Below are positions 19,118 to 61,396 of a stretch of 64,000 nt of DNA, piece by piece. The DNA lies in contig JAUXED010000001.1 of NCBI GenBank assembly GCA_030618105.1, forward strand, positions 16,120-80,119, written 5' to 3'. The position numbers were made by a program, and so were the translations under genes. The stretch comes from Bacteroidota bacterium. GTDB lineage: Bacteria > Bacteroidota > Bacteroidia > Bacteroidales > VadinHA17. Within the stretch, counting starts at the first letter, position 1. Each line of letters begins with the position of its first letter. Under the pieces are notes generated by a model. That model was not told the DNA's origin, did no database searches, and was given only the letters and a program-made list of their open reading frames with translations.

Positions 19118-19140
19118 GTGTTTTAATGCTATTTATGTTC

Positions 19141-23368: not shown

Positions 23369-23430
23369 AAAGCTATATCTCCATTTTATAACAGTGAAAT
23401 ATGGCAGGCATTTTACATTCTTCTAAAAAG

Positions 23431-23527
23431 TTACTGGGTGCTGGGTGCTGGTTACTGGTTACTGGCCTGATCTTTAACCTTGAATTCTTAATTCTTCCTT
23501 ACTCAACTACTCACCCTACTTAACTAC
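23431..23527. repeat. (CTGGGTG/CTGGTTA)n heptamers (23431-23465) and the YACTCAAC-type word block (23494-23527) in a divergent intergenic region
   Basis: Same words as 48600-48643 (reverse complement) and 30879-30923 / 50261-50349. Confidence 0.85.
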
Positions 23528-24508: not shown

Positions 24509-24551
24509 TTTAAATAATTATTAATTTTTAAAATTTATTTTTCCTGCTTTA

Positions 24552-24733
24552 TTTACAATTTATGTATACCCATAAAGCATAATAAGTATACCGGTTTTGC
24601 GATCCGCCAGCTGGCGGAGAAGCAATCTTCCCTGGCTTTTCGTAAAGCTTATAATAGTCTATTTATTTGACATTCTGGTTGTTTTTGGTAGTTTACTTCG
24701 TCGTTTCACTCCTCGCAAAATCTTTTTTCAACC
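24552..24733 (-). mobile_element. ~182-bp MITE-like palindromic element, full copy 1 (inverted relative to copy 2)
   Basis: Its reverse complement aligns by eye end-to-end with 36897-37078. Shared features are the GATTTTGCGA / TCGCAAAAYC arms, GAAGCAATCT / AGATTGCTTC inner arms and the TCCGCCAGCTGGCGGA palindrome. Confidence 0.75.
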
Positions 24734-25119
24734 AATAAAATCCATTATTAATAATATGTTCATTATTTGTTAAATTAGATAAATAAAAATTTATTAAATA
24801 TTTTTCTTTATCATTTATTAATAAAAAAAATGTTTTATCAAAAAAAAGTTATTTACTAAATAACGCCATAAAATGAACAAAAATTTTAAATTTTTTATAA
24901 AATATTTATTAAATTATAACTTATTATTTTCCTTTCAACAGTTGTTAATTTTTATAATAATACATTGAATCACAACCTGTTTTTTTTGTAATATTGTTGA
25001 AATTTTGTTCCTAACTTTTTAAAAACATAATATACAACAATTATGTATATTATTTTTTAACACAATTAACAATACATTATTAATAACATAAATAATAATT
25101 AAATATATAATATATTAAT

Positions 25120-26118: not shown

Positions 26119-26122
26119 GAAA

Positions 26123-26444
26123 GTTGGCAGTCGGCAATCAACAGTCAGCAAGAAAATAAAAACTCAAATAACAAGCACCAAATAACAAATAAAAAACAAG
26201 ATTCAAAAAAAGAAAATTGGAAGAAAAAAAAATAAAATATTGGTAAATTCTATATTGAATTTTTATTTTTTTGTTAATTGGATATTATTTACTCACAAAA
26301 TAATTAATTTTAAAGGTGTTCCCCGAAAAAACGGGGCAAGCTGTGAGATCACTTCGTTAAGTTGTTTTTTGAGATTTGTTATTTATTTATAAATTGACAC
26401 TAAGTAGTTCAGTCTTCAGATTGCTGACTGAAGGCTGCCGACTT
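26123..26444. repeat. Long imperfect inverted repeat with AGTCGGC/AGTCAGC words at both ends in opposite orientation, and an internal CCCCGAAAAAACGGGG hairpin
   Basis: 26123-26150 compared with the reverse complement of 26410-26444. The A-rich inner arms (AAATAACAAAT...) are also mirrored. Hairpin at 26321-26336. Confidence 0.45.
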
Positions 26445-26534
26445 ATAAACGCAAAGCATAATGAGATTAGTAATTTTAGCAATAAAAAAATTAAGACACT
26501 GCATAGTTACAGAGTTTTATTAAGGTTATAAATA

Positions 26535-30354: not shown

Positions 30355-30801
30355 ATGAAAGAAACTGTAAATGTATTACTTAAGAAAAAAATGGTTTTTG
30401 AAGTTGAAGTAAACGGGCATAAAATTATTATAGATGCAGACAAGAAGGCTGGAGGAGGGAATAAAGGACCCAGGCCAAAACCATTAATGCTTGCTGCCCT
30501 TGGCGGATGTACAGCCATGGATGTAGTTTCTATTTTAAGGAAAATGAGAGTAAATTTCGTAGCAGTTAATGTAAAAGTTGATGGTGAATTGACGGAGGAA
30601 CACCCAAGGCATTTCTATAAAATGCATGTAACATACGAATTTACAGGGAAGGACCTGCCTTTGGAGAAGCTGGAAAAAGCCGTAAATCTTTCACAAGACA
30701 GATATTGTGGCGTAAGTTATAGTTACGCGAAAGCAATGGAAATAACACACGAAATAAAAATAAAAGAGTCGGCAGTCGGCAATCGGCAGTCGGCAATTTA
30801 A
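30355..30801 (+). CDS. OsmC/Ohr-family peroxiredoxin-like protein
   Basis: 148 aa. GPRPKPLMLAALGGCT and DRYCGV motifs. The last ~11 codons are read from the AGTCGGC heptamer repeat. Confidence 0.85.
   Translation: MKETVNVLLKKKMVFEVEVNGHKIIIDADKKAGGGNKGPRPKPLMLAALGGCTAMDVVSILRKMRVNFVAVNVKVDGELTEEHPRHFYKMHVTYEFTGKDLPLEKLEKAVNLSQDRYCGVSYSYAKAMEITHEIKIKESAVGNRQSAI
30767..30797 (+). repeat. (AGTCGGC)x4 heptamer repeat forming the 3' end of the OsmC ORF
   Basis: Direct reading. Confidence 0.9.
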
Positions 30802-30821: not shown

Positions 30822-30923
30822 CCTCATCACCTCATCACCTCATCACCTCATCACCTCATTGGTCTTTTATTCTGCATCTTCCTTACTCAACTACTTAACT
30901 ACTCAACTATTAAACCACTCAAC
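30822..30923 (-). repeat. (TCATCACC)x4-5 and the YACTCAAC word block downstream of pheS (purine/G+T-rich on the pheS sense strand)
   Basis: Direct reading. Confidence 0.9.
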
Positions 30924-30927
30924 TTTT

Positions 30928-34422: not shown

Positions 34423-34480
34423 GGATTTTGCGAGGAACGAAGTGACGAAGCAATCTACCAAAACAACAAGAATAATAAAT
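34423..34480 (+). mobile_element. Partial (left-arm) copy of the 182-bp element
   Basis: GGATTTTGCGAGGAACGAAGTGACGAAGCAATCTACCAAAACAACAAGAAT matches the left half of the copies at 36897 and 24733 (reverse complement). Confidence 0.65.
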
Positions 34481-34949: not shown

Positions 34950-34975
34950 AGTATAAACAACCCGTTCTTCAGTTT

Positions 34976-35021
34976 GCCCGCCCGCCTGACCGGACGGGCA
35001 GGGACGGGCCGACTGCCGACT
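34976..35021 (+). repeat. GC-rich 24-mer copy 3 followed by a GCCGACT word, downstream of dut
   Basis: 34980-35003 is identical to 1187-1210. Confidence 0.85.
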
Positions 35022-35067
35022 TAAAAACGAAATAATAATGAAGTTTATCATTTTAATGTTACAATAT

Positions 35068-36896: not shown

Positions 36897-37078
36897 GTTT
36901 GAAAAAGGATTTTGCGAGGAGCGAAGCGACGAAGCAATCTCACAAGAACAACTGGGATGCCAAAGCAATAGACTGTCTTGAACTTTACGAAAAGTCTTGA
37001 AAGATTGCTTCTCCGCCAGCTGGCGGATCGCAAAATCCGTATACTTTTTATGGTTTAAAGATATACATAAATTGTAAA
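36897..37078 (+). mobile_element. ~182-bp MITE-like palindromic element, full copy 2, ending 7 bp before the DUF4292 gene ATG
   Basis: See 24552-24733. It sits inside the conserved TPR-DUF4292 gene pair. Confidence 0.75.
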
Positions 37079-39571: not shown

Positions 39572-39593
39572 AACTCACGACTCACGACTCAAG
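39572..39593 (+). repeat. (ACTCACG)x3 heptamer repeat after the anti-sigma kinase gene
   Basis: Direct reading. Confidence 0.8.
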
Positions 39594-40321: not shown

Positions 40322-42193
40322 ATGAAAGAATATGATGTAATTGTTATTGGAGGGGGACATGCGGGTTGTGAAGCAGCAGCATCAGCAGCAAATATGGGTT
40401 CTGAGGTGTTGCTGATTACAATGGATATGACAAAAATTGCAGAAATGTCATGCAATCCGGCTATGGGAGGGATTGCAAAAGGACAAATAATTAGGGAGAT
40501 AGATGCTTTGGGAGGGTATAGTGGAATAGTTACTGATGAAAGCATGATACAGTTCCGAATGCTTAACAGGTCGAAAGGTCCGGCAATGTGGAGCCCAAGG
40601 GCACAAAACGACAGAATGAAATTTACGAAAATTTGGAGGGAGAAACTTGAAGGAATTGAAAACCTGGATTTTTGGCAGGATACTGTAGAAATAATTATGA
40701 TAAAAAATAACAAGGTTGTTGGTGTAAAGACAAATATGGGAAGGGCAATAAAAGGGCAAAGTGTTATTATTACAAGCGGGACGTTTATGAATGGAATTAT
40801 GTATGTTGGAAAAGTGAGAAATAAGGGAGGAAGAGCCTCAGAACCTGCATCATATGGATTGTCAAAGCAATTAATGAATATTGGTTTTGAGGTTGGAAGA
40901 ATGAAAACAGGAACACCGGCAAGAATTGATGGAAGAACGATAAATTTTAAAAAATTAAAGGAGCAAAAAGGAGATGGAGAAGGGAAATGTTTTTCATTTA
41001 TGAATGATAAAGTTGTTATAGGAAATGAAAAAAGCTGCTTTATTACATATACAAACAAGGAAGTTCATAATATTCTTAATAGAGGTCTTATGGATTCGCC
41101 TTTATATGATGGTTCGATAAAAAGTATTGGACCAAGGTATTGTCCGAGTATAGAAGGAAAAATAGTAACATTTGCGGGGAAAGATATGCATCAGTTATTC
41201 CTTGAACCGGAAGGAGAAAATACTGTAGAATATTATATTAACGGGTTTTCGTCCAGTTTATCAGTGGAAATACAATATGAAGCAATGAAAAAAATCGAAG
41301 GACTGGAAAAAGTAAAAATATTCAGACCGGGCTATGCAATAGAATATGATTACTTTCCACCAACACAAATAAAACATACACTGGAGACGAAAAGAATAGA
41401 GAACCTCTATTTTGCCGGACAGGTAAATGGAACAACGGGATATGAAGAGGCTGGTGCACAGGGTTTAATGGCAGGAATAAATGCTCATTTAAAGTTAAAT
41501 AACAAAGAAGAAATAATTCTTAAACGTAACGAAGCTTATATAGGAGTACTTATTGACGACCTTATTACAAAGGGAGTTGATGAACCATACAGAATGTTTA
41601 CATCAAGAGCAGAGTACAGAATTTTGTTAAGACAAGATAATGCTGATAAAAGACTTACAGGTATAGGATATAAAATTGGGTTGGCATCTGAAGAAAGAAT
41701 GGAAAAAGTAAGGAAAAAGTATAAAGAAAGAGATGAAGTAATTAAATGGATTAAAAAGGAATCAATAAGACCGGAAGAAATAAACAAGATATTAGAAAAG
41801 CACGGAACAAGAAAAATTAAGCAAAGCAGAAAACTGGATCAAATATTATTAAGACCGGAAATTAAAATTAATGACCTGGAAAAGGGATTAGAAAAAGTTA
41901 AAAAGAGATTTGGTGAAATAGGTGTAATGAAAGAGGAGATATTAGAATCAGCAGAAATTGAGATTAAATATGAAGGTTACATTGAAAGAGAAGACAAAAT
42001 TGCAAAAAAGATACAACGGCTGGAAAATATAAAATTGAAAGGAGAAATTAATTATAATGAAATGTTATCAATATCGACAGAGGGCAGGCAAAAACTTTCA
42101 AAAATCAGACCGGAGACAATTGGACAAGCATCAAGAATAAGTGGTGTATCTCCTTCGGATATTAATGTATTGCTCGTATTTATGGGAAGGTGA
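40322..42193 (+). CDS. mnmG: tRNA uridine-5-carboxymethylaminomethyl synthesis enzyme MnmG (GidA)
   Basis: YDVIVIGGGHAGCEAA FAD motif, 623 aa, GidA-associated C-terminal domain. Confidence 0.95.
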   Translation: MKEYDVIVIGGGHAGCEAAASAANMGSEVLLITMDMTKIAEMSCNPAMGGIAKGQIIREIDALGGYSGIVTDESMIQFRMLNRSKGPAMWSPRAQNDRMKFTKIWREKLEGIENLDFWQDTVEIIMIKNNKVVGVKTNMGRAIKGQSVIITSGTFMNGIMYVGKVRNKGGRASEPASYGLSKQLMNIGFEVGRMKTGTPARIDGRTINFKKLKEQKGDGEGKCFSFMNDKVVIGNEKSCFITYTNKEVHNILNRGLMDSPLYDGSIKSIGPRYCPSIEGKIVTFAGKDMHQLFLEPEGENTVEYYINGFSSSLSVEIQYEAMKKIEGLEKVKIFRPGYAIEYDYFPPTQIKHTLETKRIENLYFAGQVNGTTGYEEAGAQGLMAGINAHLKLNNKEEIILKRNEAYIGVLIDDLITKGVDEPYRMFTSRAEYRILLRQDNADKRLTGIGYKIGLASEERMEKVRKKYKERDEVIKWIKKESIRPEEINKILEKHGTRKIKQSRKLDQILLRPEIKINDLEKGLEKVKKRFGEIGVMKEEILESAEIEIKYEGYIEREDKIAKKIQRLENIKLKGEINYNEMLSISTEGRQKLSKIRPETIGQASRISGVSPSDINVLLVFMGR

Positions 42194-42230
42194 AGAAGTA
42201 AGAAGTAAGAAGTAAGTAGTATGTAGTAAG
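42191..42230 (+). repeat. (GTAAGAA/GTAAGTA)n heptamers starting at the mnmG stop codon
   Basis: Direct reading. Confidence 0.9.
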
Positions 42231-42269
42231 ATGTCACGTGAGAAGGCGATAAGGCAAAGGCTTTCTATT

Positions 42270-42285
42270 TGTTCCACGTGGAACA
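42270..42285. promoter_or_regulatory. Perfect 16-bp palindrome TGTTCCACGTGGAACA, copy 1
   Basis: Identical 17-mer (…ACAT) at 42354-42370. A third CACGTG-core palindrome, TCACGTGA, lies at 42234-42241. Confidence 0.5.
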
Positions 42286-42310
42286 TGTTTTGGTTTTAGT
42301 AAATATGTAT

Positions 42311-42349
42311 TTTAACTTTTAACTTTATAACTTTATAACTTTTAACTTC
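42311..42349. repeat. (TTTAACTT/TATAACTT) A/T-rich tandem words between the two palindromes
   Basis: Direct reading. Confidence 0.7.
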
Positions 42350-42353
42350 ATTG

Positions 42354-42369
42354 TGTTCCACGTGGAACA
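42354..42369. promoter_or_regulatory. Perfect 16-bp palindrome TGTTCCACGTGGAACA, copy 2, 14 bp upstream of the ade ATG
   Basis: Direct reading. Centre-to-centre spacing to copy 1 is 84 bp. Confidence 0.5.
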
Positions 42370-42382
42370 TTATTAATATAGC

Positions 42383-44020: not shown

Positions 44021-44094
44021 TGAGCAGAAAGTAAGGAATAGAAATATAGATTTTTCCTCTTGCAAGGCTATTTAAAAAATGAGTAATGAATACA

Positions 44095-44235
44095 GTTCTT
44101 TTCTTTGTGGAACTCTGTATTTTCTTTGTGGTCCTTTGTGTAATAACTATTTAAGAGCTAGCCACAGAGAAACACAAACCTGCCCGCCGCTTTGCTTTGG
44201 CAGGCGGGGAAGTCACAAAGAGCCACAAAGACTTT
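44095..44235. repeat. Composite palindromic element: CTTTGTGG words (left), GC hairpin CCCGCC...GGCGGG (centre), CCACAAAG words (right)
   Basis: 44103-44140 compared with the reverse complement of 44162-44231. Central stem at 44183-44208. Confidence 0.6.
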
Positions 44236-44361
44236 TCAAACTGAGTTCAAAGTTCAAAGTTAACCCGCAACTCGTAACCCGAAACTCTTTTACACTGCAA
44301 CACAATTACTAAACTCTTTTATTCTTAAACTTATAAACCTCTCAACTTATAAACTATTCAA

Positions 44362-44382
44362 CACCTCATCACCTCATCACCC
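44362..44382. repeat. (TCATCACC) word pair upstream of uvrC
   Basis: CACCTCATCACCTCATCACCC. Confidence 0.8.
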
Positions 44383-44411
44383 ATATTACATAAATTTACT
44401 ACATTTCGGGA

Positions 44412-46358: not shown

Positions 46359-46470
46359 AAGGAGGAAAGGAAGTGAAGAGAATTAAAAATTAGAAATTTG
46401 AAATTAAAAAGTGAAGAGGAGGAAATGTGGAGATGGGGAAATGAGGAAATGAGGAGATGAGGAAATAGGA
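46359..46470 (+). repeat. Purine-rich degenerate word block (GGAAATGAGG / GTGAAGAG) downstream of uvrC
   Basis: Almost C-free on the + strand for ~110 bp. Confidence 0.75.
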
Positions 46471-46591
46471 TAAAGAAGTTTCATCCCTTGGTAAATAAAA
46501 TGTTTTAAGATCGCAAATTGCTGCCTTAAAGGAATAAAATATTTTTAATACCGGAATCAGGAGAGTATATAATTAAATAGCGTAATTTTAT

Positions 46592-46927
46592 TTATACTTG
46601 TATTGAAATATTCACTTTCCCACCTAATCCCTTCTCAACAATGTCAAAGAGAGTTTTTAGTGTAATGTTGCTTCCATCATTTTCTACACGTGATATATAA
46701 CTTCTCTTTTTTGAAATGATTTCAGCAAGATCCTCTTGTGTCAGGTTCTTTTTCTGTCGAGCTTTCCGCAACAATATTCCTATTTTAAATGCATCAAATT
46801 CTCTGTCAAGTTCATCTCTAAGAGCAGTCCCTTTCTTCCCGAATTGTTCGTCTTTAATTTGTGACCAGGTTTTAATATTTCCATTTTTCTTTTTCATTGC
46901 TTTTTCTCCTTGTAAATATTCGTTCAT
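46592..46927 (-). CDS. XRE-family HTH antitoxin (HigA-like partner of Gp49/RelE-type toxins)
   Basis: 111 aa. FKIGILLRKARQKKNLTQEDLAEIISKKRSYISRVENDGSNITLKTL is the HTH_3 pattern. Confidence 0.8.
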   Translation of the reverse strand: MNEYLQGEKAMKKKNGNIKTWSQIKDEQFGKKGTALRDELDREFDAFKIGILLRKARQKKNLTQEDLAEIISKKRSYISRVENDGSNITLKTLFDIVEKGLGGKVNISIQV

Positions 46928-47067
46928 TAATTTAACTGCTTTATTAATTTCCTTCTGAGGAGCTTTTGAAGAATTTTATAAATTTTCGCTTTTACTTTGG
47001 CCGGTTGAGCTTTAAGAAAGTTCTCAAAATAATGTTTGTACGCAACAATCTGTCGTATCTTATTCAA
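46927..47067 (-). pseudogene. Truncated RelE/ParE (HigB, Gp49-like) toxin remnant, 46 codons
   Basis: A TTG-started ORF (M)NKIRQIVAYKHYFENFLKAQPAKVKAKIYKILQKLLRRKLIKQLN* matches only the N-terminal ~35 aa of ~105-aa toxins of this family. Its TAA overlaps the antitoxin ATG (TAATG). Confidence 0.55.
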
Positions 47068-47088
47068 TTCAATAAGTTTAATACAAAT

Positions 47089-47104
47089 GTAACTTAAAAG
47101 TTAC
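47089..47104. promoter_or_regulatory. 16-bp palindrome GTAACTTAAAAGTTAC, candidate toxin-antitoxin operator
   Basis: Perfect 7-2-7 inverted repeat 22 bp upstream of the toxin-remnant start. Confidence 0.45.
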
Positions 47105-47355
47105 GATTCAACAAGGATTATTTTAACTTTTTTAATTTCTCAAATTTTCCAAAACCCCGTCAGCGGTTATAAACCCTGACGGTGGTTAGGTATAAAAAAC
47201 ACGGGTTTGATTTAAAATAACAGGAATTATATATTATTTGGGTTTATTGGTAAGTGATTGAAAATAAAATTGAAAATCAAGCCGTATTTCTAATATGTAG
47301 TTTAAATACATTAAAAAATAATATAGAATGTTGTTTTGAAACAACAAAATATTAA

Positions 47356-47363
47356 TATATTTG
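47356..47363 (+). promoter_or_regulatory. Candidate -7 box TATATTTG for the AAA ATPase gene
   Basis: 22 bp upstream of the ATG at 47385. Confidence 0.4.
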
Positions 47364-47384
47364 CATTATGTAAAATGCAATATT

Positions 47385-48578
47385 ATGGAAAAGCTTTTTG
47401 AAAAAGCATTAAAAAAAACAAAATCTGTTTCTCTTAAATTCAAAAGATATCTTTTTGATGAAATAGATTGGAACAGCAGGCTTATAGGAATTAAAGGGGC
47501 TCGTGGCACAGGTAAAACAACTATTTTAATCCAGAAATTAAAGAGTGTTTTTAGTGATAATTATGTTGCTCTTTATATAAGCATGGATGATATTTATTTC
47601 TCAGCGAATAAACTGATTGATTTAACGGACACATTTGTAAAAAATGGTGGAAAGTTCCTGTTTATTGACGAGGTTCATAAATATAAAAACTGGTCACAGG
47701 AATTGAAAAATATATATGATGACCATCCTGAACTTTCAGTTGTTTTTACCAGTTCATCTGCCCTTGAAATTCATAAAGGAGAATATGATTTAAGCAGGCG
47801 TGCAATTATTTATAATTTGCACGAATTATCGCTGAGAGAGTATATAAACTTGAGCCTTGGTATGCAGTTGCCTGTTTTTTCTTTGAATGATATCTTAGAA
47901 AAACATATAGGGTTAAGCGGCGAAATAAATCAGTTGGTAAAACCTATTGTATTATTTAATGAATTTATTCAATATGGAGCGTATCCATTTATTAATGAGG
48001 GGAAAATGAAATATTATGAACGACTTGAAACCATAATTAATCTGATTATTGAGATCGATCTACAATCAATAACAGATATTGAATACCAGACGATCCTTAA
48101 AATTAAAAAACTTTTATTTATAATATCCGGGATTGTTCCATTTAAACCTAATATTGCTGAACTTAGCCGAAAAGTAGGAACTACACGCGATGTATTATTA
48201 AAATACCTGAATTATCTGAATCGTGCTAATTTAATTCTATCATTACATTCCGATACAAAAGGTATAAGTTACATGGCTAAACCTGAAAAGATTTTCTTAA
48301 ACAATACAACACTTATGTATGCATTGAACCAGAATAATATAAATTTAGGAAGCATTAGGGAAACATTTTTTGCAAATCAACTGGTTTGCAAACACACGCT
48401 TACTTATCCTAAAAAAGGAGATTTTATAATTGATGGTAAATATATAGTTGAGATTGGGGGTAAAAACAAGTCAAACGAACAAATTAAAGGAATACCAAAT
48501 TCTTTTATTGCTGCCGATGGGATTGAATATGGATTTAACAATAAAATTCCGCTCTGGTTATTTGGGTTTTTATATTAA
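47385..48578 (+). CDS. AAA-family ATPase with DUF4143-type C-terminal domain
   Basis: Walker A GARGTGKTT and Walker B FLFIDEVH. I prefer the ATG at 47385 because the track TTG (47361) overlaps a TATATTTG -7 box. Confidence 0.8.
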   Translation: MEKLFEKALKKTKSVSLKFKRYLFDEIDWNSRLIGIKGARGTGKTTILIQKLKSVFSDNYVALYISMDDIYFSANKLIDLTDTFVKNGGKFLFIDEVHKYKNWSQELKNIYDDHPELSVVFTSSSALEIHKGEYDLSRRAIIYNLHELSLREYINLSLGMQLPVFSLNDILEKHIGLSGEINQLVKPIVLFNEFIQYGAYPFINEGKMKYYERLETIINLIIEIDLQSITDIEYQTILKIKKLLFIISGIVPFKPNIAELSRKVGTTRDVLLKYLNYLNRANLILSLHSDTKGISYMAKPEKIFLNNTTLMYALNQNNINLGSIRETFFANQLVCKHTLTYPKKGDFIIDGKYIVEIGGKNKSNEQIKGIPNSFIAADGIEYGFNNKIPLWLFGFLY

Positions 48579-48599
48579 ACCCGCATAAGTGAAAACCTA

Positions 48600-48643
48600 C
48601 CCAGCACCCAGCACCCAGTACCCAGTACCCAGTACCCAGTACC
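48600..48643 (-). repeat. (CCAGCAC)x2(CCAGTAC)x4 heptamers between the convergent ATPase and polyprenyl synthase genes
   Basis: Direct reading. Reverse complement of the words at 23431-23465. Confidence 0.9.
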
Positions 48644-48647
48644 TAAA

Positions 48648-49622
48648 TTACTTAACTCTGCAGGTAGTGTACAAGGCAAGTTTTTGCAAAGAAGACCTTG
48701 ACTCGCTTTCAGGAAATTCATTTAAAATATCAAGCGCTTTGTTTTTATATTCATGCATTTTTTCTTTTGAATACTCCATACCTCTATTATCCCTGACGAA
48801 ACGAATTACTTCATTAACCTTGACAGACTTCTTGTTATGATGTCTTACAAGTCTGAGCATCTTTCTCCTTTGGGCCGGATTAGTGTTTTTCAGAGCATGG
48901 ATCAAAGGAAGTGTAAGTTTTTTCTCTTTGATATCATTCCCGGTTGGCTTACCCAAAAGTCCATTTTTCTCATAATCAAACAGATCGTCCCTGATCTGAA
49001 ACGCAATTCCTATATATTCTCCAAATTGCTTCATTTTACTGATGGCTTCAGGATCATCTGTTACCGATTTGGTCCCGGAAGCACAACAGGCAGCAATAAG
49101 AGCAGCAGTTTTTTTACGGATTATTTCAAAATACTCATCTTCGGTAATATTTAACTTTCGGGATTTTTGTATCTGTAATAATTCACCTTCACTCATCTCC
49201 TTTACCGCGAAAGAAACAATCTCAAGAATTTCATAATCCTTGTTTTTTACTGATAAAAGTAATCCTTTTGCTAACAGGTAATCTCCAAGCAAAACAGCTA
49301 CTTTTGATTTCCATAGGGCATTTATTGAAAAAAACCCTCTCCTTTCAAATGATTCATCCACCACATCATCATGCACGAGTGTTGCAGTATGAAGAAGTTC
49401 AATAAGAGCTGCCGCAGTAAAACTGGATTCATTTATATCGCCTGATAATTTAGCTGAAAGAAAAACAAACATTGGTCTCATTTGTTTTCCCTTCCTTCTT
49501 AGGATATAGTTTGTGATAATACTAAGAAGCGGCACCTTGCTTTTCATAATTGTGTTGAAATAACCGGAGAACCGCTTCATTTCTGTTTCTATGGGCGCTC
49601 TTATTTCCTTAACTGCAGACAT
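48648..49622 (-). CDS. Long-chain polyprenyl diphosphate synthase (octaprenyl/IspB-like)
   Basis: FARM LVHDDVVDES and SARM QIRDDLFD motifs, 324 aa. Confidence 0.9.
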   Translation of the reverse strand: MSAVKEIRAPIETEMKRFSGYFNTIMKSKVPLLSIITNYILRRKGKQMRPMFVFLSAKLSGDINESSFTAAALIELLHTATLVHDDVVDESFERRGFFSINALWKSKVAVLLGDYLLAKGLLLSVKNKDYEILEIVSFAVKEMSEGELLQIQKSRKLNITEDEYFEIIRKKTAALIAACCASGTKSVTDDPEAISKMKQFGEYIGIAFQIRDDLFDYEKNGLLGKPTGNDIKEKKLTLPLIHALKNTNPAQRRKMLRLVRHHNKKSVKVNEVIRFVRDNRGMEYSKEKMHEYKNKALDILNEFPESESRSSLQKLALYTTCRVK

Positions 49623-49806
49623 ACAAATGTTTATGATATCATACCTGCCGGCATAAACCTATTTATAGATAAAACAAAAGGCAAAAATAACAGGTGTCAA
49701 AAGGTGAATTAATTTTATTTGCTCAAAGATAGGAAAATATATATTAGTCGGTTTTAGGTCAGTAATTTATTGTAACGGAAGTTTAAAAATGCATAATAAA
49801 TATACT

Positions 49807-49860
49807 GATTTTGCGATCCGCCGGTTAGCGGAGAAGCAATCTTTCATGACTTTTCGTAAA
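49807..49860 (-). mobile_element. Partial (right-arm) copy of the 182-bp element, with variant palindrome TCCGCCGGTTAGCGGA
   Basis: GATTTTGCGATCCGCC..GCGGAGAAGCAATCTTTCATGACTTTTCGTAAA matches 24595-24647. The left flank GCATAATAAATATAC is also shared. Confidence 0.65.
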
Positions 49861-50259: not shown

Positions 50260-50350
50260 AGAAAAAGTTGAGTAGTTGAGTGGTTGAGTAAGGTGAGTAA
50301 GGAAGAAAGAAAAAGTTGAGTAGTTGAGTGGTTGAGTAAGGAAGAAAGAA
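50259..50350 (+). repeat. 48-bp tandem duplication built from GTTGAGTR octamers, starting at the arsR-family stop codon
   Basis: Unit 1 is 50261-50308. Unit 2 is 50309-50349 and lacks a 9-bp GTGAGTAAG. Confidence 0.9.
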
Positions 50351-50406: not shown

Positions 50407-50856
50407 ATGGCTATAGTACGTGTTACAAAGGAATTCCGTTTTGAAATGGCTCATGCCTTGTGGAATTATGACGGACCATGCAGAAATATTCACGGGCATT
50501 CATACAAATTGCTGGTAACCGTAAAGGGCGAGCCGTTAAATGACCCTGGTAAACCCAAGCATGGAATGATAATTGACTTTGGTGACCTGAAAAAGATTGT
50601 AAAAAGCATAATTATAAACAGGTTTGATCATACAGTTGTTGTTAATAAACAAGCACCATATGAAATGTTACAGAAAATGGGGCAAATGTTTGAAAAATAT
50701 GAGGTAATGGATTTCCAGCCAACCTGTGAGAAACTTGTTATATATTTTGCTGATAAAATTAAAGAGAAATTACCTGAAAGCGCACAACTTCAGCGACTTA
50801 GATTGTATGAAACGACAACATCATTTGCAGAATGGTACGAGGAGGATAATAAATAA
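50407..50856 (+). CDS. queD: 6-carboxy-5,6,7,8-tetrahydropterin synthase
   Basis: 149 aa. F.F.MAH, NIHGHSY, DH..VV motifs of the PTPS/QueD family. Confidence 0.9.
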   Translation: MAIVRVTKEFRFEMAHALWNYDGPCRNIHGHSYKLLVTVKGEPLNDPGKPKHGMIIDFGDLKKIVKSIIINRFDHTVVVNKQAPYEMLQKMGQMFEKYEVMDFQPTCEKLVIYFADKIKEKLPESAQLQRLRLYETTTSFAEWYEEDNK

Positions 50857-50857
50857 A

Positions 50858-50955
50858 GGCAGAAGGCAGAAGGCAAAAGAGAAGAAAGAAGAAGTAAGAA
50901 GTAGGGAGTAAGGAGACAGCCTCATCACCTCATTTCCCCATTACCTCATCACCTT
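50858..50955 (+). repeat. (GGCAGAA)n + (GTARGRA)n heptamers followed by inverted-orientation TCATCACC words, between queD and polA
   Basis: Direct reading. Confidence 0.85.
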
Positions 50956-50995
50956 ATTACTTCACTGCAACACAATTTATATTAAAACACAAACA

Positions 50996-53776
50996 ATGAC
51001 TGGTAATAAAAAGCTTTTTCTTCTTGATGCTTATGCATTGATATACAGAGCATATTATGCATTTATCCATAATCCTGTAATAACATCAAAAGGATTAAAT
51101 ACTTCTGCAATTTATGGATTTGTTAATACATTAAATGATATAATTAAAAACCAGACACCATCACATATCGCAGTGGTTTTTGATCCTCCTTCTCCTACAT
51201 TCAGACACAAAATGTATAATGAATACAAAGCCAACAGGGAAGCGACTCCTGAAGATATTAAGAAATCGGTTCCGTATATAAAAAAAGTAATTTCAGCTTA
51301 TAATATACCGATTCTGGAAGTGGAAGGATATGAAGCAGATGACACTATCGGAACGATTGCAAAAAAAGCAGAAAGTAAGGGTTTTAAGGTTTATATGATG
51401 ACTCCGGATAAGGATTTTGCACAGCTTGTGTCTGAAAATATTTTTATTTATAAACCTGGAAGAGGCGGAGATAAAGCTGTTATTTGGGATAAGGAAAAAG
51501 TCAGAGAGAAATTTATGGTAGAGAGCCCGGAACAGGTAATTGAAGTGCTTGCTCTTTGGGGTGATGCTTCAGATAATATACCCGGAGCCCCGGGGATAGG
51601 AGAAAAAACGTCAAAAAAGCTTATATCAAAATATGGCTCAATAGATGAGATATTCAAAAATATTGAACACTTTAAAGGAAAGCAAAAAGAGAACCTGATT
51701 GAATACAGGGAACAGATTGAATTATCCAGGAAGTTGGTTGAAATCCCATTGGATGTTCCGGTTGATTTCGATGAGGAAGCAATGAAATCCAAAGATCCGG
51801 ACAAGGAAAAACTCCAGGAAATATTTCAGGAACTGGAATTCAAAAGTTTCCTTTTCCGGTTGAATAATGGGATTGAAATACCGGCAAAAAAAGAAGAAAT
51901 AGCAGCACAGGGATCATTGTTTTCCGGACCTGATACAGGAATAGAGAAAACAGGTAATCTCAGGAAAAACATTAAGTCAACCCCGCATAATTATATTTTG
52001 GTTGATACATCCGAAAAACAAGATGCGCTTATAAGCAAACTAAATAAACAAAACCGGTTTTGTTTTGATACTGAAACAACAGGATTGGATACTGTTAAAG
52101 ATGAACTGGTTGGTATTTCTTTTTGTTGTGAAAGTCATGAAGCATATTGGCTCCCTGTGGAAAGCGATAAAAAGATATCTGAAAAAGTACTTGAGAAATT
52201 CAAACCGGTATTTGAAAACGAAAAGATTGAAAAAATAGGTCAGAACCTGAAATTTGATATAAAGGTTTTACGGAAAAGGGGAATTGTTGTGAAGGGTGTT
52301 TTATTTGATACAATGATTGCACATTATCTTATTAAACCCGAAGGAAGACACGGACTGAACGATCTGGCAGAGGACTATCTGAATTATACTCCTGTTAAAA
52401 TTGAAGAATTGATAGGGGTAAAAGGGAAAAATCAGGCGAATATGCGATTAGTACCACAGGAAAAAATTAAGGAATATGCAGCGGAAGATGCAGATCTGAC
52501 ATGGCAGATAAAAGAAATTCTTGAAAAGGAACTTAAAGAAAAAAACCTTGAAACACTTGCCGGAAAAATTGAAATGCCACTGATATATGTATTATGTGAC
52601 ATGGAAATGGAAGGATTTAAAGTAAATGTTGATGTGTTGAAAAAATACTCAGTAATATTAAAAACTGAATTGCTGGATATTCAGACCAGGATCTATAAAC
52701 TTGCTGATACGGAATTCAATATTTCCTCTCCGAAACAACTGGGCGAAATATTGTTTAATAAAATGAAAATTGATTCCAAAGCAAAAAGAACAAAAACAGG
52801 ACAATATTCTACAAGCGAGGATGTACTTCAAAGACTAACCGATAAACATGAAATAGTTTCCAAAGTATTAGAATTCAGGTCAGTTAGCAAATTGCTTTCC
52901 ACTTATGTTGAAAAACTTCCGGAGTTAAAAAATAGTGAAACCGGGAAAATTCATTCTTCTTTCAACCAAACAATTACAGCTACGGGACGCTTGAGTTCCA
53001 ATAACCCGAATTTACAGAATATCCCGATAAGGGAAGACAGAGGCAGGGAGATAAGGAAAGCATTTATCCCCTCGGATGTACAACATATTCTGATCTCGGC
53101 TGATTATTCACAGATAGAGTTAAGATTAATGGCACATATGAGTGGCGATAAAAATATGATTGAGGCTTTTAATGCAGGTGAAGATATTCATGTCTCTACA
53201 GCAGCAAAAATATATAGAATTTCACAAGGGGATGTTACAAAAGAAATACGCGGAAGAGCAAAAACCGCTAATTTTGGTATCATATATGGAATTTCTGCTT
53301 TTGGACTAAGCCGGAGGATGAATTTGTCTCTGTCTGATGCTAAGGAATTTATAGAGGAGTATTTTAAAACTTATCCGGGGGTTAAAAAATATATGGACGA
53401 GAGCATAAAAGGAGCAAGGGAAAAGGGATATGTGCAAACCATTATGGGCAGAAAAAGATATCTTCCTGATATACTATCACGTAATTCTGTTGTAAGGGGA
53501 TTTGCAGAGAGAAATGCAATAAATGCACCTATTCAGGGATCTGCAGCTGATATTATCAAAATAGCAATGATCAATATTCACAACAGGATAGAGGAAAAAC
53601 AATTGAAATCCGGAATGATATTACAGGTTCATGACGAACTGGTTTTTGATGTCCCGGAAAAAGAAATTGATGTACTTAGTGATATTGTGGTTAATGAAAT
53701 GCAGAATGCTGTAAAGCTGGATGTGCCTCTTACAGTTGAATGGGGTACAGGAAGAAACTGGCTTGAAGCACACTGA
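50996..53776 (+). CDS. polA: DNA polymerase I
   Basis: 926 aa: 5'-nuclease, 3'-5' exo-like and family A polymerase domains (DYSQIELR, RRxAKxxNFGxxYG, QVHDELVF). Confidence 0.95.
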   Translation: MTGNKKLFLLDAYALIYRAYYAFIHNPVITSKGLNTSAIYGFVNTLNDIIKNQTPSHIAVVFDPPSPTFRHKMYNEYKANREATPEDIKKSVPYIKKVISAYNIPILEVEGYEADDTIGTIAKKAESKGFKVYMMTPDKDFAQLVSENIFIYKPGRGGDKAVIWDKEKVREKFMVESPEQVIEVLALWGDASDNIPGAPGIGEKTSKKLISKYGSIDEIFKNIEHFKGKQKENLIEYREQIELSRKLVEIPLDVPVDFDEEAMKSKDPDKEKLQEIFQELEFKSFLFRLNNGIEIPAKKEEIAAQGSLFSGPDTGIEKTGNLRKNIKSTPHNYILVDTSEKQDALISKLNKQNRFCFDTETTGLDTVKDELVGISFCCESHEAYWLPVESDKKISEKVLEKFKPVFENEKIEKIGQNLKFDIKVLRKRGIVVKGVLFDTMIAHYLIKPEGRHGLNDLAEDYLNYTPVKIEELIGVKGKNQANMRLVPQEKIKEYAAEDADLTWQIKEILEKELKEKNLETLAGKIEMPLIYVLCDMEMEGFKVNVDVLKKYSVILKTELLDIQTRIYKLADTEFNISSPKQLGEILFNKMKIDSKAKRTKTGQYSTSEDVLQRLTDKHEIVSKVLEFRSVSKLLSTYVEKLPELKNSETGKIHSSFNQTITATGRLSSNNPNLQNIPIREDRGREIRKAFIPSDVQHILISADYSQIELRLMAHMSGDKNMIEAFNAGEDIHVSTAAKIYRISQGDVTKEIRGRAKTANFGIIYGISAFGLSRRMNLSLSDAKEFIEEYFKTYPGVKKYMDESIKGAREKGYVQTIMGRKRYLPDILSRNSVVRGFAERNAINAPIQGSAADIIKIAMINIHNRIEEKQLKSGMILQVHDELVFDVPEKEIDVLSDIVVNEMQNAVKLDVPLTVEWGTGRNWLEAH

Positions 53777-53900
53777 TGAAGAAGTAGGAAGTAAGAAGTA
53801 AGTAGTAAATAGGAAGAAAGAGGTGATGAGGTGATGAAGAGAAGAGGTGATGAGGTGATGAAGAGAAGAGGTGATGAGGTGATGAGGTGATGTGGTGTGA
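53774..53900 (+). repeat. (GTARRNA)n heptamers + (GGTGATGA)n/AAGAGAAGA 24-bp superrepeat starting at the polA stop
   Basis: Direct reading. Confidence 0.9.
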
Positions 53901-53954
53901 AGATCAAAATAACTAAAATTTTAGGCCAATCTCATTATACTTTGCATTTTTGAT

Positions 53955-53993
53955 GACTGTCGACTGCCGACTGTGGACTGCCGATTGCCGACT
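53955..53993 (-). repeat. (GACTGYC)x5 heptamers; reads AGTCGGC on the sense strand of the S41 peptidase gene, which ends at 53999
   Basis: Direct reading. Confidence 0.9.
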
Positions 53994-53998
53994 TATTT

Positions 53999-55672
53999 TT
54001 ATTGATCAGAAGGATTGAGAATGGCAGTGTATATGTTTTTATCTTCAAGTAGTTCACATGCTTTTTCTATTTGTTTATCATAAGCCAGTGAAGACTGTAT
54101 CATACCGGAACGGTAATAATAGCGGTCAACAATAAATTCTTCAAGAAGAATTTTAATCTCCTTGCTAAAGGTATTCATGTCCTGTTCAAGATTGTGCGAA
54201 AGTTTTTTTGAAAGCGCTGTGAATTCATTCTCGGAAAGCTGGTAATATTTTTCTTTTTTTGCAGTTTCTTCCAGCGTACGTAATACCTGTTCGGTTTTAG
54301 TTTTATAATTAAAGTTTTGATCTTTAACAAAAGCGATAAAATCAAGATAAATATCGTCAGTAAGCTCAAAATCACCAGGAGGAAGTAGTGAATCGTGTGT
54401 TAAATAATAGCGGGTTGAAAAGTCGAAAAACAAAAAACCGGTAAAAAGTTCAATAGTAAGCTGGCTATAATTATCCTTTTTAATTTCAATATCAGGAGAA
54501 ATACCACCGCCGTCATAAACCAATCGACCATTTTTGGTTTTATATTCTGAAATCAGGGAATCCGGTATATGACCAACGCTTCCGTCCTCATTACGATTGG
54601 AGTAATCCAGCGCCTGGATACAACGCCCGCTGGGGATATAATACTTTGCTGTTGTCACCTTAAGTCTTGAATTATAGCTTAAAGGACGGGTGGTTTGAAC
54701 AAGACCCTTTCCAAAGGTACGGGTACCGACAATTACTGCCCTGTCAATATCCTGAAGAGCGCCGGCAACGATTTCTGATGCTGATGCAGAACCCCGGTCT
54801 ACAAGAACAACAAGGGGTGTTTGAGTATCAACCGGAAGATTCCTTGCCCTGTATGTTTCATCGAATTGTTTTACCTTGCCTCTGGTACTGACTATTTCCT
54901 GTCCTTTGTCAACAAAAAGATTTGAAACGTTAACTGCCTCGATAAGTAAACCACCCGGATTTCCTCGCAAATCAAGAATTAACGATTTTAAAGAATATGT
55001 TTTTTTAAGATCAGAAAGAGCGTTTTTAACATCTTTAAAGCAGTCCTGTGTGAAGTTTGAAAGACGGATATAGCCAATATTCTCATTCAGCATACCATAA
55101 TAAGGAACACCGGTGATATGGATTTTTTTGCGGATAAGAGTAAATGTAAAGGGTTCATCAATTCCATATCGTTTAATGGTTACTCCAACTTCGGTGTCAG
55201 GCAGGCCTTTTAACAGGTCACTTACTTTGTGAAGAGCCAATCCCTCAATAGATTTACTATCTATCTCCCGGATAATATCTCCGGCTTTCAGTCCTGCTAA
55301 ATCTGCCGGGAAATCTTTATATATCTCAGAAATAACAGCAAAATCACCACTTTTCCTGATTAACGAACCAATACCTCCGTATTTACCTGTTGTTGCAAAA
55401 TTAAAATCGTCAATACCTGATTCTGGAATATAAACAGTGTAAGGATCAAGTGATTGGAGCATTTCATTAATACTTATTTCAATCAGTTTTTCCGGTTCAA
55501 TATCATCGACATAAAAGACATTAAGCTCACGGAAGAGGGAATAATAAATATCAAGATTTTTTAAAAGCTTAAAATCCCTGTCTTCATTAAATGAAACAAG
55601 ACCGGCAGTAAACGCGATGACAATAAGTGTAATAATCCCTGCTTTCTTAAATCCAATCCGTGTTAGTTTCAT
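53999..55672 (-). CDS. S41-family C-terminal processing peptidase with PDZ domain
   Basis: ILDLRGNPGG, GSASASEI, TFGKG motifs. I prefer the ATG at 55672 (MKLTRIGFKKAGIITLIVIAF signal/anchor) over the track start at 55747. Confidence 0.85.
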   Translation of the reverse strand: MKLTRIGFKKAGIITLIVIAFTAGLVSFNEDRDFKLLKNLDIYYSLFRELNVFYVDDIEPEKLIEISINEMLQSLDPYTVYIPESGIDDFNFATTGKYGGIGSLIRKSGDFAVISEIYKDFPADLAGLKAGDIIREIDSKSIEGLALHKVSDLLKGLPDTEVGVTIKRYGIDEPFTFTLIRKKIHITGVPYYGMLNENIGYIRLSNFTQDCFKDVKNALSDLKKTYSLKSLILDLRGNPGGLLIEAVNVSNLFVDKGQEIVSTRGKVKQFDETYRARNLPVDTQTPLVVLVDRGSASASEIVAGALQDIDRAVIVGTRTFGKGLVQTTRPLSYNSRLKVTTAKYYIPSGRCIQALDYSNRNEDGSVGHIPDSLISEYKTKNGRLVYDGGGISPDIEIKKDNYSQLTIELFTGFLFFDFSTRYYLTHDSLLPPGDFELTDDIYLDFIAFVKDQNFNYKTKTEQVLRTLEETAKKEKYYQLSENEFTALSKKLSHNLEQDMNTFSKEIKILLEEFIVDRYYYRSGMIQSSLAYDKQIEKACELLEDKNIYTAILNPSDQ

Positions 55673-55763
55673 ATGTTTATTATTTAGCAATATTTTTATT
55701 TTCAATAGTAAGTATTTTTGGAATACTGGAATGCTCGATAAAGTCATCTATTTCTTCCCATTT

Positions 55764-55782
55764 TTCCACTATTCCATTATTC
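55764..55782 (-). repeat. TTCCACTATTCCATTATTC word pair (same family as 5318-5372)
   Basis: Direct reading. Confidence 0.6.
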
Positions 55783-56517: not shown

Positions 56518-56543
56518 AAAAGTCAAAAGTCAAAAGTCAAAAG
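56518..56543. repeat. (AAAGTCA)x3.5 heptamer repeat between hemD and rnpA
   Basis: Direct reading. Confidence 0.85.
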
Positions 56544-59416: not shown

Positions 59417-59448
59417 AGGGAAATTTATTTATTGTATAATATAAAGGA

Positions 59449-59520
59449 GTGCCTAAAATGTCTAAAGTGCCTAAAATGCCTAAAGTTATAACTTCTTCTC
59501 TTACCAACTTTAAGCACTTT
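59449..59520. repeat. (GCCTAAAAT/GTCTAAAGT) words + a TTATAACTTCTTCTC...AACTTTAAG module (also at 9228-9262)
   Basis: The 15-mer TTATAACTTCTTCTC is shared between the two loci. Confidence 0.7.
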
Positions 59521-61329: not shown

Positions 61330-61343
61330 TTATAATTTATTTA

Positions 61344-61378
61344 GAAAAAACCTGAAGTTTAGGCTTCAGGTTTTTTTG
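61344..61378. terminator. Bidirectional rho-independent terminator between the convergent Yip1-like and PFK genes
   Basis: A6-CCTGAAG-TTTAGG-CTTCAGG-T7. Confidence 0.85.
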
Positions 61379-61396
61379 TTATTAATTATTGCCCGG

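Follow-up and report, generated by a model that had tools for sequence, protein, structure and literature searches.

Polarized arrays of tandem heptamers and octamers recur between genes in a 64-kb stretch of an uncultured Bacteroidales-like genome

To our knowledge, intergenic heptamer and octamer repeats have been recognized since about 1990 and their function is unexplained. Long simple-sequence repeats (LSSRs) were surveyed by Mrazek, Guo and Shah in 2007; as this survey is quoted in later papers, units are 5-11 nt long, heptamers are the commonest, the distribution is sporadic and slippage is given as the origin (PMC4679880, PMC4692102), and the ten richest genomes belong to Burkholderia, cyanobacteria, actinobacteria and Xanthomonas (PMC4679880). 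One of these papers also mentions three tandem heptanucleotides, the STRR family, in Calothrix PCC 7601 (PMC4692102). Rehm et al. (2015) analyzed the GGGAATC repeats of Xanthomonas and the GGGGAYT repeats of Nostoc PCC 7120: about 90% are intergenic; they follow stop codons at 0-50 bp on the coding strand, in some cases overlapping the stop, and precede start codons on the non-coding strand, and the ORF nearest to them stands 5' of their G-rich strand irrespective of its own orientation (PMC4692102). These repeats are under-represented in divergent spacers, vary in length among close relatives, have housekeeping neighbors and show no link to mobile elements; their function is unknown, and 90% lie between the same genes in two Xanthomonas species (PMC4692102). 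MacGregor (2015) described TAACTGA direct repeats in marine Beggiatoaceae, cyanobacteria and five Bacteroidetes; those of Beggiatoaceae form a single dominant word found mostly just upstream of starts, and Gramella forsetii and Aequorivita sublithincola carry other heptamer repeats in these same spacers, several per spacer, with shorter, repeat-free spacers in close relatives (PMC4679880). Here, we report tandem arrays of 7-9 nt units in a 64,000-nt stretch, hereafter the window, of contig JAUXED010000001.1 (assembly GCA_030618105.1, Bacteroidota; Bacteroidia; Bacteroidales; VadinHA17), taking as focal case the spacer between polA and a gene for an S41/PDZ protease.

The focal spacer extends over 222 bp (53777-53998), and the two genes converge on it. 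Its repeats were delimited with Tandem Repeats Finder (TRF):

50996-53776, plus strand: polA (Pfam)
53779-53818, plus strand: AAGAAGT-type heptamer array (TRF: 53779-53808, period 7, 4.3 copies), beginning 2 nt past the polA stop; its purine-rich strand is the polA sense strand
53813-53897, plus strand: GAGGTGAT octamers (TRF: 53820-53897, 9.8 copies) nested in a 24-bp superrepeat GAAGAGAAGAGGTGATGAGGTGAT (TRF: 53813-53885, 3.1 copies, 98% match)
53898-53954, no strand assigned: unique, non-repeated core of 57 bp containing the 20-nt motif TCATTATACTTTGCATTTTT (53932-53951)
53955-53993, minus strand: GACTGYC heptamers (TRF: GACTGCC, 5.6 copies); the S41 sense strand reads GGCAGTC/AGTCGGC, beginning 5 nt past the S41 stop
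53999-55747, minus strand: S41/PDZ protease gene (Pfam)

A first, sequence-only reading of the window had described the whole of this spacer as three word arrays. The three arrays are indeed recovered, but "whole" is a slight overstatement because the 57 bp separating the GAGGTGAT array from the GACTGCC array are unique.

The motif TCATTATACTTTGCATTTTT within this core is found identically at 1144-1163 and in a related genome (L010, see below, at about 8975-8995), and downstream of each copy stands a GACTGCC array, a GC-rich hairpin or a further palindrome. Read on the minus strand, the same place (53963-53934) is a near-perfect TCGACA-18-TATAAT pointing into the 3' end of polA, a sigma-70-type consensus that may not apply in Bacteroidota.

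We built a gene map from open reading frames (ORFs) and Pfam checks, which divides the window into 8712 bp of intergenic and 55288 bp of coding DNA. Counting TRF arrays of period 7-9 with a score of at least 40, arrays cover 891 intergenic bp (10.2%; 102 bp/kb) versus 112 coding bp (0.2%; 2 bp/kb). The observed count in the spacers is 22 arrays and 854 bp; when the spacers were shuffled 100 times with their dinucleotides preserved, a control that the sequence-only reading had proposed, the mean fell to 0.07 arrays and 2 bp. These results show that the arrays are real and far beyond chance, and TRF recovered practically all of those listed from the letters alone. The claim that units are mostly 7 or 8 nt long also stands: at a score of at least 30, these two periods dominate with 22 rows each. 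At this score 22 of the 42 spacers of at least 40 bp bear arrays (14 of 42 at a score of at least 40). Occupancy is highest in convergent spacers (6/8) and lowest in divergent ones (3/8).

The arrays had also been described as devoid of coding capacity. This is not strictly true, since those at 17889, 19155, 5321 and 30767 enter the last codons of ORFs. Four ORFs end inside arrays: an OsmC-like ORF (30355-30801), a glycosyltransferase gene (16622-17911), a PIG-L gene (5352-6161) and the gene of a 1405-aa protein (19151-23368). Because repeat units supply the C-terminal residues and stop codons of these four ORFs, both are expected to vary with copy number.

The same words return in different spacers and in different combinations, as the sequence-only reading had noticed. 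Among 40 non-redundant arrays, 20 pairs share an identical unit when rotation and strand are allowed; 500 letter-shuffles yielded 0.79 such pairs on average and never more than 5. The vocabulary of the lineage comprises at least 15 words, and its largest families in the window are:

AAGAAGT: 5 loci
GAGGTGAT: 5 loci, including the longest array
AGTTGAGT: 3 loci
GTACTGG: 2 loci
AGTCGGC: 2 loci and weaker copies

One previously proposed group, ATTCCCTYT/CCCCTTTAT, split on closer inspection into three words, one having a period of 8 and the others a period of 9.

We searched for relatives with the PolA protein and retrieved four metagenome-assembled genomes (MAGs) of uncultured Bacteroidota/Bacteroidales from different studies (L007-L010), with PolA identities of 88-95%; the next-best match was 63% identical. 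The material of this lineage amounts to 64 kb of the window genome and about 58 kb of relatives. The density of period 7-9 arrays is 15.7 bp/kb in the window and 7.6-22.5 bp/kb in L007-L010. Among 76 other polA loci of Bacteroidota, most have no arrays at all, and a few unrelated lineages (L065, L073 and L054) have a high array load made of different words. The trait is therefore sporadic across Bacteroidota and its vocabulary lineage-specific.

Contigs from JGI and Logan, stemming from several samples, were further retrieved by exact-protein look-ups. A large number of short-read contigs break off within arrays, which would be expected if the arrays were assembly artefacts or chimeric repeat collapses. 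However, independently assembled contigs (L002, L003, L207-L209, L211 and L213) contain arrays identical to those of the window, several contigs match the window without a difference across the arrays, the four MAGs carry arrays at orthologous sites, and conserved genes are contiguous across arrays on both sides. The sequence-only reading had noted that arrays confined to this contig would point to an artefact; the arrays proved not to be confined to it, and we consider an assembly origin extremely improbable. The contigs that stop inside or at arrays come from at least eight sequencing runs (L003-L006, L207-L208 and L214-L218), and breaks of this kind are usual for short-read assemblers at dispersed repeats.

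Orthologous spacers differ radically among these genomes while their flanking genes are 85-97% identical. The spacer between an ArsR-family gene and the PTPS gene measures 147 bp in the window, 222 bp in a strain of about 95% identity (L001), 244 bp in L007, and only 10, 7 and 34 bp in L008, L009 and L010, respectively. A direct repeat AGAAAAA...AGAAAAA flanks the block in L001 and AGAAAAA is found once in L008; the outgroup L011 has an unrelated spacer of 200 bp, which does not distinguish insertion from deletion. Between PTPS and polA, AGGCAGA is present in about 2.5 copies in the window and in 1 to about 3.5 among relatives, and the neighboring CCTCATCA block varies too. Downstream of polA, L007 has ten copies of AAGAAGT and no GAGGTGAT; L008 has a small hairpin and no array; L009 has 18.7 copies of GACTGTG/GACTGCC, orthologous to the window array 53955-53993 and running to the contig end; and L010 has only a single copy of GATGAGGTG, which could be a seed. 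Finally, at 39573, an identical 131-aa protein is followed by two alleles: ACTCACG in 2.7 copies, or AGTTGAGT in 3-4 copies and, behind it, GGATACA in two, three or at least four copies. Unit number is thus polymorphic at the strain level, and slippage or unequal exchange would be its likely cause.

A segment of about 2.2 kb (46361-48649) is also missing from all four relatives. Besides a small ORF on the minus strand, it includes the gene of an AAA_14/DUF4143 ATPase (47361-48578), and each of its junctions has a word array, one of GAGGAAAT (46419-46470) and the other of TACCCAG (48598-48643).

We then compared all spacers of the window with each other. The sequence following mnmG (42191-42221) is 97% identical to 53777-53807, including the stop codon and the progression from AAGAAGT to AAGTAGT, and 17916-17967 is 92% identical to 53810-53861, spanning the junction AGGAAG-AAGAGGTGATGAGG. 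Further block matches link 2612-2636 to 53788-53812 and 30877-30908 to 50314-50345. The AAGAAGT blocks 3' of polA, mnmG, the glycosyltransferase gene and PTPS can be aligned over about 40 columns, and eight AGTTGAGT-type arrays of the window and the relatives share an invariant TGAGTAAGG at their 3' edge, followed by a purine-rich tail. Copying of 30-50 nt blocks between spacers is the economical reading of these alignments because independent slippage would not recreate the order of the variants; ectopic conversion or another mechanism may have done the copying.

The sequence-only reading had suggested a dedicated generating or recombining mechanism. Since ordered multi-word blocks recur at unrelated spacers, a process beyond local slippage is needed and this part of the suggestion holds, but the window offers no indication of a dedicated machinery; the annotated flanking genes are all housekeeping. 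An enzyme working in trans (for example a RAYT-like transposase, a recombinase or a templated polymerase) and synthesizing or inserting word blocks at gene ends would account for the ordered blocks common to several loci, for the lineage-specific vocabulary and sporadic distribution, and for the presence or absence of 140-240 bp blocks, with AGAAAAA direct repeats at the flanks in L001, in spacers that are otherwise 7-34 bp long. Yet this 7-bp repeat equally fits a microhomology-mediated deletion, no terminal inverted repeats, REP-like hairpin units or conserved element ends were found, no transposase, recombinase or other mobile-element gene is present among the 30 annotated proteins of the window, and Rehm et al. 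saw no association of their repeats with mobile elements (PMC4692102). We regard such an enzyme as very unlikely.

The arrays are strongly polarized relative to genes. Most have a GC skew of +1 or -1, and we oriented each skewed array with its G-rich strand 5' to 3' and scored the side of the nearest ORF, treating ORF ends and starts alike. The nearest ORF lies 5' of 29 arrays and 3' of 9 in the window and L007-L010 (P = 0.0017), and 5' of 22 (12 after stops and 10 before starts) and 3' of 5 at the polA loci of unrelated Bacteroidota (P = 0.0015). The sense strand 3' of stop codons is rich in G and purines (AAGAAGT, GAGGTGAT, AGTTGAGT, AGGCAGA, GGCAGTC), and the sense strand 5' of start codons is the G-poor complement (CCTCATCA, ACTCAAC, GCCGACT, CCAGCAC). 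One double-stranded word serves both contexts with its orientation flipped, and this orientation tracks the gene rather than the half of the window. Codon content differs between the strands: stop codons close every frame of the purine-rich strand in 19 arrays out of 30, but of the pyrimidine-rich strand in 1 out of 30, and ATG, GTG and TTG are wholly absent from most pyrimidine-rich strands. Only 3 of the 30 arrays match a G-quadruplex pattern (four runs of at least three G separated by 1-7 nt). Because the positional rule published for Xanthomonas and Nostoc holds here and in unrelated Bacteroidota with quite different words, this polarity is a property of the repeat class and not of G-quadruplexes.

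The arrays show the features that define LSSRs: units of 5-11 nt repeated head to tail beyond what composition predicts, units that are not multiples of three confined to non-coding DNA, and copy-number polymorphism between strains. The survey genomes, as quoted in the later papers, differ in that the host here belongs to an uncultured Bacteroidales-like lineage, octamers are as common as heptamers and many words stand side by side. The repeats of Rehm et al. share with these arrays their polarity, their rarity in divergent spacers, their length variation and their housekeeping neighbors. Those genomes have one dominant word with G-quadruplex potential, whereas at least 15 words are found here and most arrays lack that potential; moreover, those repeats are positionally kept between species, whereas here one relative may have a whole block that another lacks. 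Gramella forsetii and Aequorivita sublithincola, with their heptamer-bearing spacers and the short repeat-free spacers of their relatives (PMC4679880), present the pattern seen here at orthologous spacers. The resemblance to the STRR family lies in several heptamer families dispersed over non-coding loci, a lineage-specific vocabulary and different arrays next to each other. Mazel et al. reportedly gave the STRR1-3 units in 1990 as CCCCAGT, TTGGTCA and CAACAGT. None of these STRR1-3 units is present in tandem in the window, although CCCAGTA is one base off STRR1; STRR hosts are heterocystous cyanobacteria rather than Bacteroidota, and octamers and 24- and 39-bp superrepeats are prominent here. 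Tandem TAACTGA (searched as TAACTGATAACTGA, 0 matches on both strands) and GGGAATC are likewise absent from the window, and the exact array strings, including GAGGTGAT, had no match in a literature search.

Other classes fit less well. CRISPR arrays have repeats of 21-48 nt with unique spacers of similar length and are ruled out, since the units here are contiguous and 7-9 nt long. REP units, which RAYT transposases mobilize, form hairpins from imperfect palindromes; REP and BIME elements resemble the arrays as intergenic mosaics of few short motifs, often at gene 3' ends, but the arrays consist of direct repeats, fold no more stably than shuffles and have no significant inverted repeats around them. 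The exclusion of CRISPR and REP/BIME by the sequence-only reading and its statement that terminal inverted repeats are lacking are thereby borne out. MITEs are ruled out for the arrays on the same lack of terminal inverted repeats, with one ambiguous 7-bp direct repeat at a single indel. Contingency loci, in which simple-sequence repeats underlie phase variation by switching expression from the promoter or 5' coding part of genes for surface or host-interaction proteins, would seem to be a poor match as well, as the arrays are mostly found at the 3' ends of housekeeping genes (such as polA, mnmG, pheS, nadA and rnpA). A search of the whole window against Rfam gave no match at the gathering threshold, nor were tRNA genes found. 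The conclusion that the arrays belong to no described repeat class does not stand: intergenic tandem heptamers and LSSRs have been described before (PMC4679880, PMC4692102), and the arrays are a further example, without published words, of this known and functionally unexplained class of LSSRs and STRR-like repeats.

The polarity of the arrays is compatible with a role in transcription. Read toward the ORF, arrays are C-rich, free of G and unstructured, like a Rho loading (rut) site, and they could act as directional insulators that would stop convergent antisense transcripts and read-through from upstream, while the G-rich outward reading would be ignored by Rho. Consistent with this, polarity is independent of ORF orientation (also PMC4692102), skews are extreme in most arrays, the RNA is unstructured and convergent spacers are the most occupied. 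A terminator scan of 44-64 kb found one clear canonical hairpin (61344-61377); its spacer (61330-61396) holds a plain hairpin terminator in the window and 207 bp of arrays in L008, and the reverse is seen in the polA spacer of L008, where a hairpin is present and arrays are missing. However, C-rich arrays standing 30-41 nt before starts would terminate their own mRNA if they lay within the 5' untranslated region, arrays and GC-rich hairpins stand together at 26119-26534, 34950-35037 and 44021-44411, and an essential role sits poorly with how rapidly arrays are gained and lost at orthologous spacers. Overall, insulation from transcription seems unlikely as the reason for these arrays. Replacement of intrinsic terminators by arrays was rejected, since both occur in several spacers and the two are not cleanly exclusive. 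Pairing of purine arrays with downstream pyrimidine arrays into a hairpin or terminator was also ruled out, as RNA folding of the spacers 50857-50995 and 53777-53998 gave no stability beyond that of shuffles (z = -0.41 and -0.51).

The 16S rRNA 3' tail reads 5'-GAUCACCUCCUUA-3', and GAGGTGAT is the exact complement of AUCACCUC within it. Scanning metagenomes for (GAGGTGAT)3 retrieved at least 120 stretches of DNA, of which we analyzed 80 (L087-L166); the statements below apply to these listed matches. Their contigs span 30-72% GC, which indicates that many lineages carry (GAGGTGAT)n. The array lies within 60 nt 3' of an ORF of the same sense at 26 of the 80 loci, and at 13 of these 26 (35-70% GC) a TGA stop directly abuts TGAGGTGATGAGG..., so that the array begins exactly at the stop. 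Where ORFs lie on both sides, the nearest ORF is 5' of the G-rich strand at 26 loci and 3' at 13 (P = 0.053). At 18 of the 80 loci, the array stands inside a long ORF of the opposite strand. As RNA, (GAGGUGAU)n forms repeated AUG-AGG-UGA mini-ORFs with UGAUG overlaps. Among the arrays of the window and its relatives, the conserved junction at the array end, GAGTAAGGAGGA, contains the full classic Shine-Dalgarno core. The viral collection had no match to (GAGGTGAT)3, which is uninformative as an abundance control. Two readings fit the presence of GAGGTGAT at stops: junctions of stop, Shine-Dalgarno sequence and start such as TGAGGTGATGA could be slippage-prone seeds, or the word may bind ribosomes.

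The second of these extends to the possibility that arrays are platforms in the 3' untranslated region for 30S subunits, ribosomes or a single-stranded RNA-binding protein (with CSD, S1, KH or RRM domains), which would protect the 3' end or tune re-initiation. Such domains bind about 6-8 nt each. The complement of the 16S tail includes both GAGGUGAU and UAAGGAGG, and the onset of metagenome arrays at TGA and the Shine-Dalgarno consensus at the array-end junction point in the same direction, as does the position of the arrays of this lineage at or a few nt from stop codons. The polarity of the arrays is compatible with such platforms, as it is with insulation. Yet the majority of the words (AAGAAGT, AGTTGAGT, AGTCGGC, GTACTGG and ACTCACG) have no anti-Shine-Dalgarno complementarity, a match to the tail is expected by base composition in about one of 53 words and about 20 words were examined, and Bacteroidota are generally known for making little use of Shine-Dalgarno pairing. 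In addition, the same double-stranded words are found upstream of genes with their orientation flipped, and arrays are dispensable in close relatives. MacGregor (2015) proposed binding by S1, Csp or CsrA for TAACTGA repeats (PMC4679880); for the arrays studied here, we consider a binding platform quite unlikely.

The explanation that we favor, with moderate confidence, is that the arrays are hypermutable LSSRs that constitute a satellite-like load on untranslated DNA, akin to the STRR heptamers of cyanobacteria and to the heptamer repeats of Xanthomonas, Nostoc and Beggiatoaceae. Under this explanation, units of 7-8 nt would be gained and lost through strand slippage or unequal exchange, which would produce the copy-number differences observed, and multi-word blocks would be copied between spacers in either orientation through ectopic recombination or gene conversion, which would produce the blocks that spacers share. 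Selection on expression signals would then filter the site and orientation of the arrays and so yield the observed polarity and codon content: after stops, the surviving sense strand would be the G- and purine-rich one, with stop codons closing all three frames, and before starts it would be the G-poor one, with almost no ATG, GTG or TTG, no stops and no purine-rich runs resembling Shine-Dalgarno sequences. Arrays would mostly be tolerated spacer DNA, unstructured as RNA, requiring no dedicated enzyme and serving as no sequence-specific device.

Several points weigh against the idea of a tolerated load. Slippage and ectopic conversion are deduced rather than observed, and the basis is limited to the 64 kb of genome and about 58 kb of relatives. 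The vocabulary of about 15 words persists at 88-95% PolA identity while single arrays come and go, and this persistence could equally be explained by selection for words that bind proteins or ribosomes. A purine-rich tract starts at the polA stop in each of the five related genomes and in four unrelated array-bearing lineages of Bacteroidota, so that this tract looks more constrained than pure tolerance predicts. Finally, the anti-16S word GAGGTGAT is one of the two most reused words and recurs at stops across the listed contigs of 30-72% GC; neutrality predicts this only if stop/Shine-Dalgarno junctions act as seeds.

The other arrays of the window, delimited with TRF unless only their position is given, are as follows:

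2550-2736, minus strand: mosaic of GTGAGAAG, AGTAGTA/AAGAAGT, GAAGATGA and GGGGACGA, downstream of the stop of the minus-strand gene 2745-3140 (TRF)
5321-5376, minus strand: AATAGAGGG nonamers (6.4 copies) that extend into the 3' end of the PIG-L gene (TRF)
17889-17973, plus strand: AAGAAGT-type array followed by six copies of GAGGTGAT, beginning within the last codons of the glycosyltransferase gene (TRF)
19138-19187, minus strand: TAAAGGGGA nonamers overlapping the 3' end of ORF 19151-23368 (TRF)
23430-23527, no strand assigned: divergent spacer with two arrays, GTRCTGG heptamers and YACTCAAC octamers (TRF); G-poor CCAGYAC faces the start of the minus-strand gene and G-poor YACTCAAC that of the plus-strand gene
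26123-26150, plus strand: AGTCGGC-type heptamers directly 3' of the nadA stop
26410-26444, minus strand: degenerate GCCGACT-type words upstream of the gene starting at 26535
30767-30797, plus strand: AGTCGGC heptamers encoding the last codons of the OsmC-like ORF (TRF)
30822-30924, minus strand: CCTCATCA (4.8 copies) and TACTCAAC (5.1 copies); the pheS stop is followed on its sense strand by purine-rich GTTGAGTA, then by TGATGAGG (TRF)
35008-35021, minus strand: two GCCGACT units beside a GC-rich hairpin, upstream of the gene starting at 35038
39573-39591, plus strand: ACTCACG, 2.7 copies (TRF)
42193-42231, plus strand: AAGAAGT, 5.6 copies, beginning at the mnmG stop codon (TRF)
42310-42348, plus strand: TTTTAAC, 5.3 copies, with a GTTCCACGTGGAAC palindrome on either side; the next start lies 34 nt downstream of the array (TRF)
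44244-44381, plus strand: G-poor mosaic of AGTTCAA, TAACCCGAAACTCG, TAAACTTA and TCATCACC, ending 30 nt before the start codon at 44412 (TRF)
46381-46470, plus strand: AATTAAA array and a GAGGAAAT array that forms a 24-bp superrepeat (TRF)
48598-48643, minus strand: TACCCAG, 6.6 copies, reading GTACTGG past the stop of a polyprenyl synthetase gene (TRF)
50266-50350, plus strand: AGTTGAGT arrays in a 39-bp superrepeat, 3' of the ArsR-family gene; the whole block is missing in L008, L009 and L010 (TRF)
50856-50912, plus strand: AAGGCAG and then AAGAAGT arrays, beginning at the PTPS stop; copy number varies among relatives (TRF)
50920-50954, minus strand: CCTCATCA-type octamers, G-poor on the polA sense strand, ending 41 nt before the polA start (TRF)
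55758-55782, minus strand: CCATTATT, 3.1 copies, 10 nt before the start of the S41 protease gene, contrary to the polarity rule (TRF)
56518-56543, plus strand: AAAAGTC, 3.7 copies, with sense strand GACTTTT, 5 nt upstream of the rnpA start (TRF)
59448-59486, plus strand: AGTGCCTAA, 4.3 copies, in an 18-bp superrepeat between two minus-strand genes (TRF)

Other sequences accompany some of these arrays. The two copies of palindrome GTTCCACGTGGAAC that bracket the TTTTAAC array (42270-42283 and 42357-42370), upstream of the gene starting at 42383, are both present in L007 and L008; they look like putative binding sites of a regulator because they are conserved while the sequence between them changes. 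The motif CACTGCAACACAATT is found at 44283-44300, at 50962-50978 and in L008 at about 9925-9945; it stands ahead of both polA and the gene at 44412, which suggests that these two genes have a leader or promoter cassette in common. In the spacer 44244-44287 and upstream of polA in L008, the motif is preceded by GTTCAAAG and TAAC(C/T)CG(N)AAC words. Long GC-rich hairpin elements of the form GCCCGCC...GGCGGGC are present at 1166-1232, 34970-35007 and 44170-44200 in a genome that is otherwise 34% GC. A 25-nt sequence, CGCCCGCCTGACCGGACGGGCAGGG, is identical at 1186-1210 and 34979-35003, and the hairpin adjoins the GCCGACT words at 34970-35021.

The window also contains a dispersed element of about 180 bp at 24552-24731 and, inverted, at 36899-37078, with partial copies at 49791-49860, 34423-34463 and 36907-36940 and another copy in L008 (8544-8708); copies are 83-90% identical. 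With an internal palindrome TCCGCCAGCTGGCGGA and inverted ends TTTTGCGA...TCGCAAAA, it is MITE-like and unrelated to the arrays, and it lies in the same kind of spacers. Between 24000 and 26000, the signs of the GC and AT skews and the gene orientation switch at a spacer of 611 bp and 26% GC (24509-25119, rpiB/nadA). Skew tracks gene orientation, and the coding strand is strongly purine-rich. A replication origin at this spacer was rejected, as it showed no DnaA-box cluster, enrichment or matches.

These results add a heavily loaded example from Bacteroidota, in which arrays make up about 10% of the spacer DNA, to the known class of intergenic heptamer and octamer repeats, with comparative material from four MAGs and strain-level contigs. 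They extend the polarity published for Xanthomonas and Nostoc to this lineage and to unrelated Bacteroidota, and the copying of blocks between loci indicates that slippage alone is insufficient. Arrays are also a systematic source of MAG fragmentation for this lineage and extend or truncate predicted C-termini, which affects both MAG quality and gene calling. A more general functional role, in which arrays would be orientation-dependent RNA devices at gene boundaries across bacteria, with purine words holding ribosomes and the C-rich reading serving as Rho entry, appears distinctly improbable. If it were true, the purine words after stops would close every frame and hold 30S subunits, ribosomes or some other RNA-binding protein on the 3' untranslated region, with (GAGGUGAU)n as the clearest case, and the C-rich reading would insulate genes from incoming transcription.

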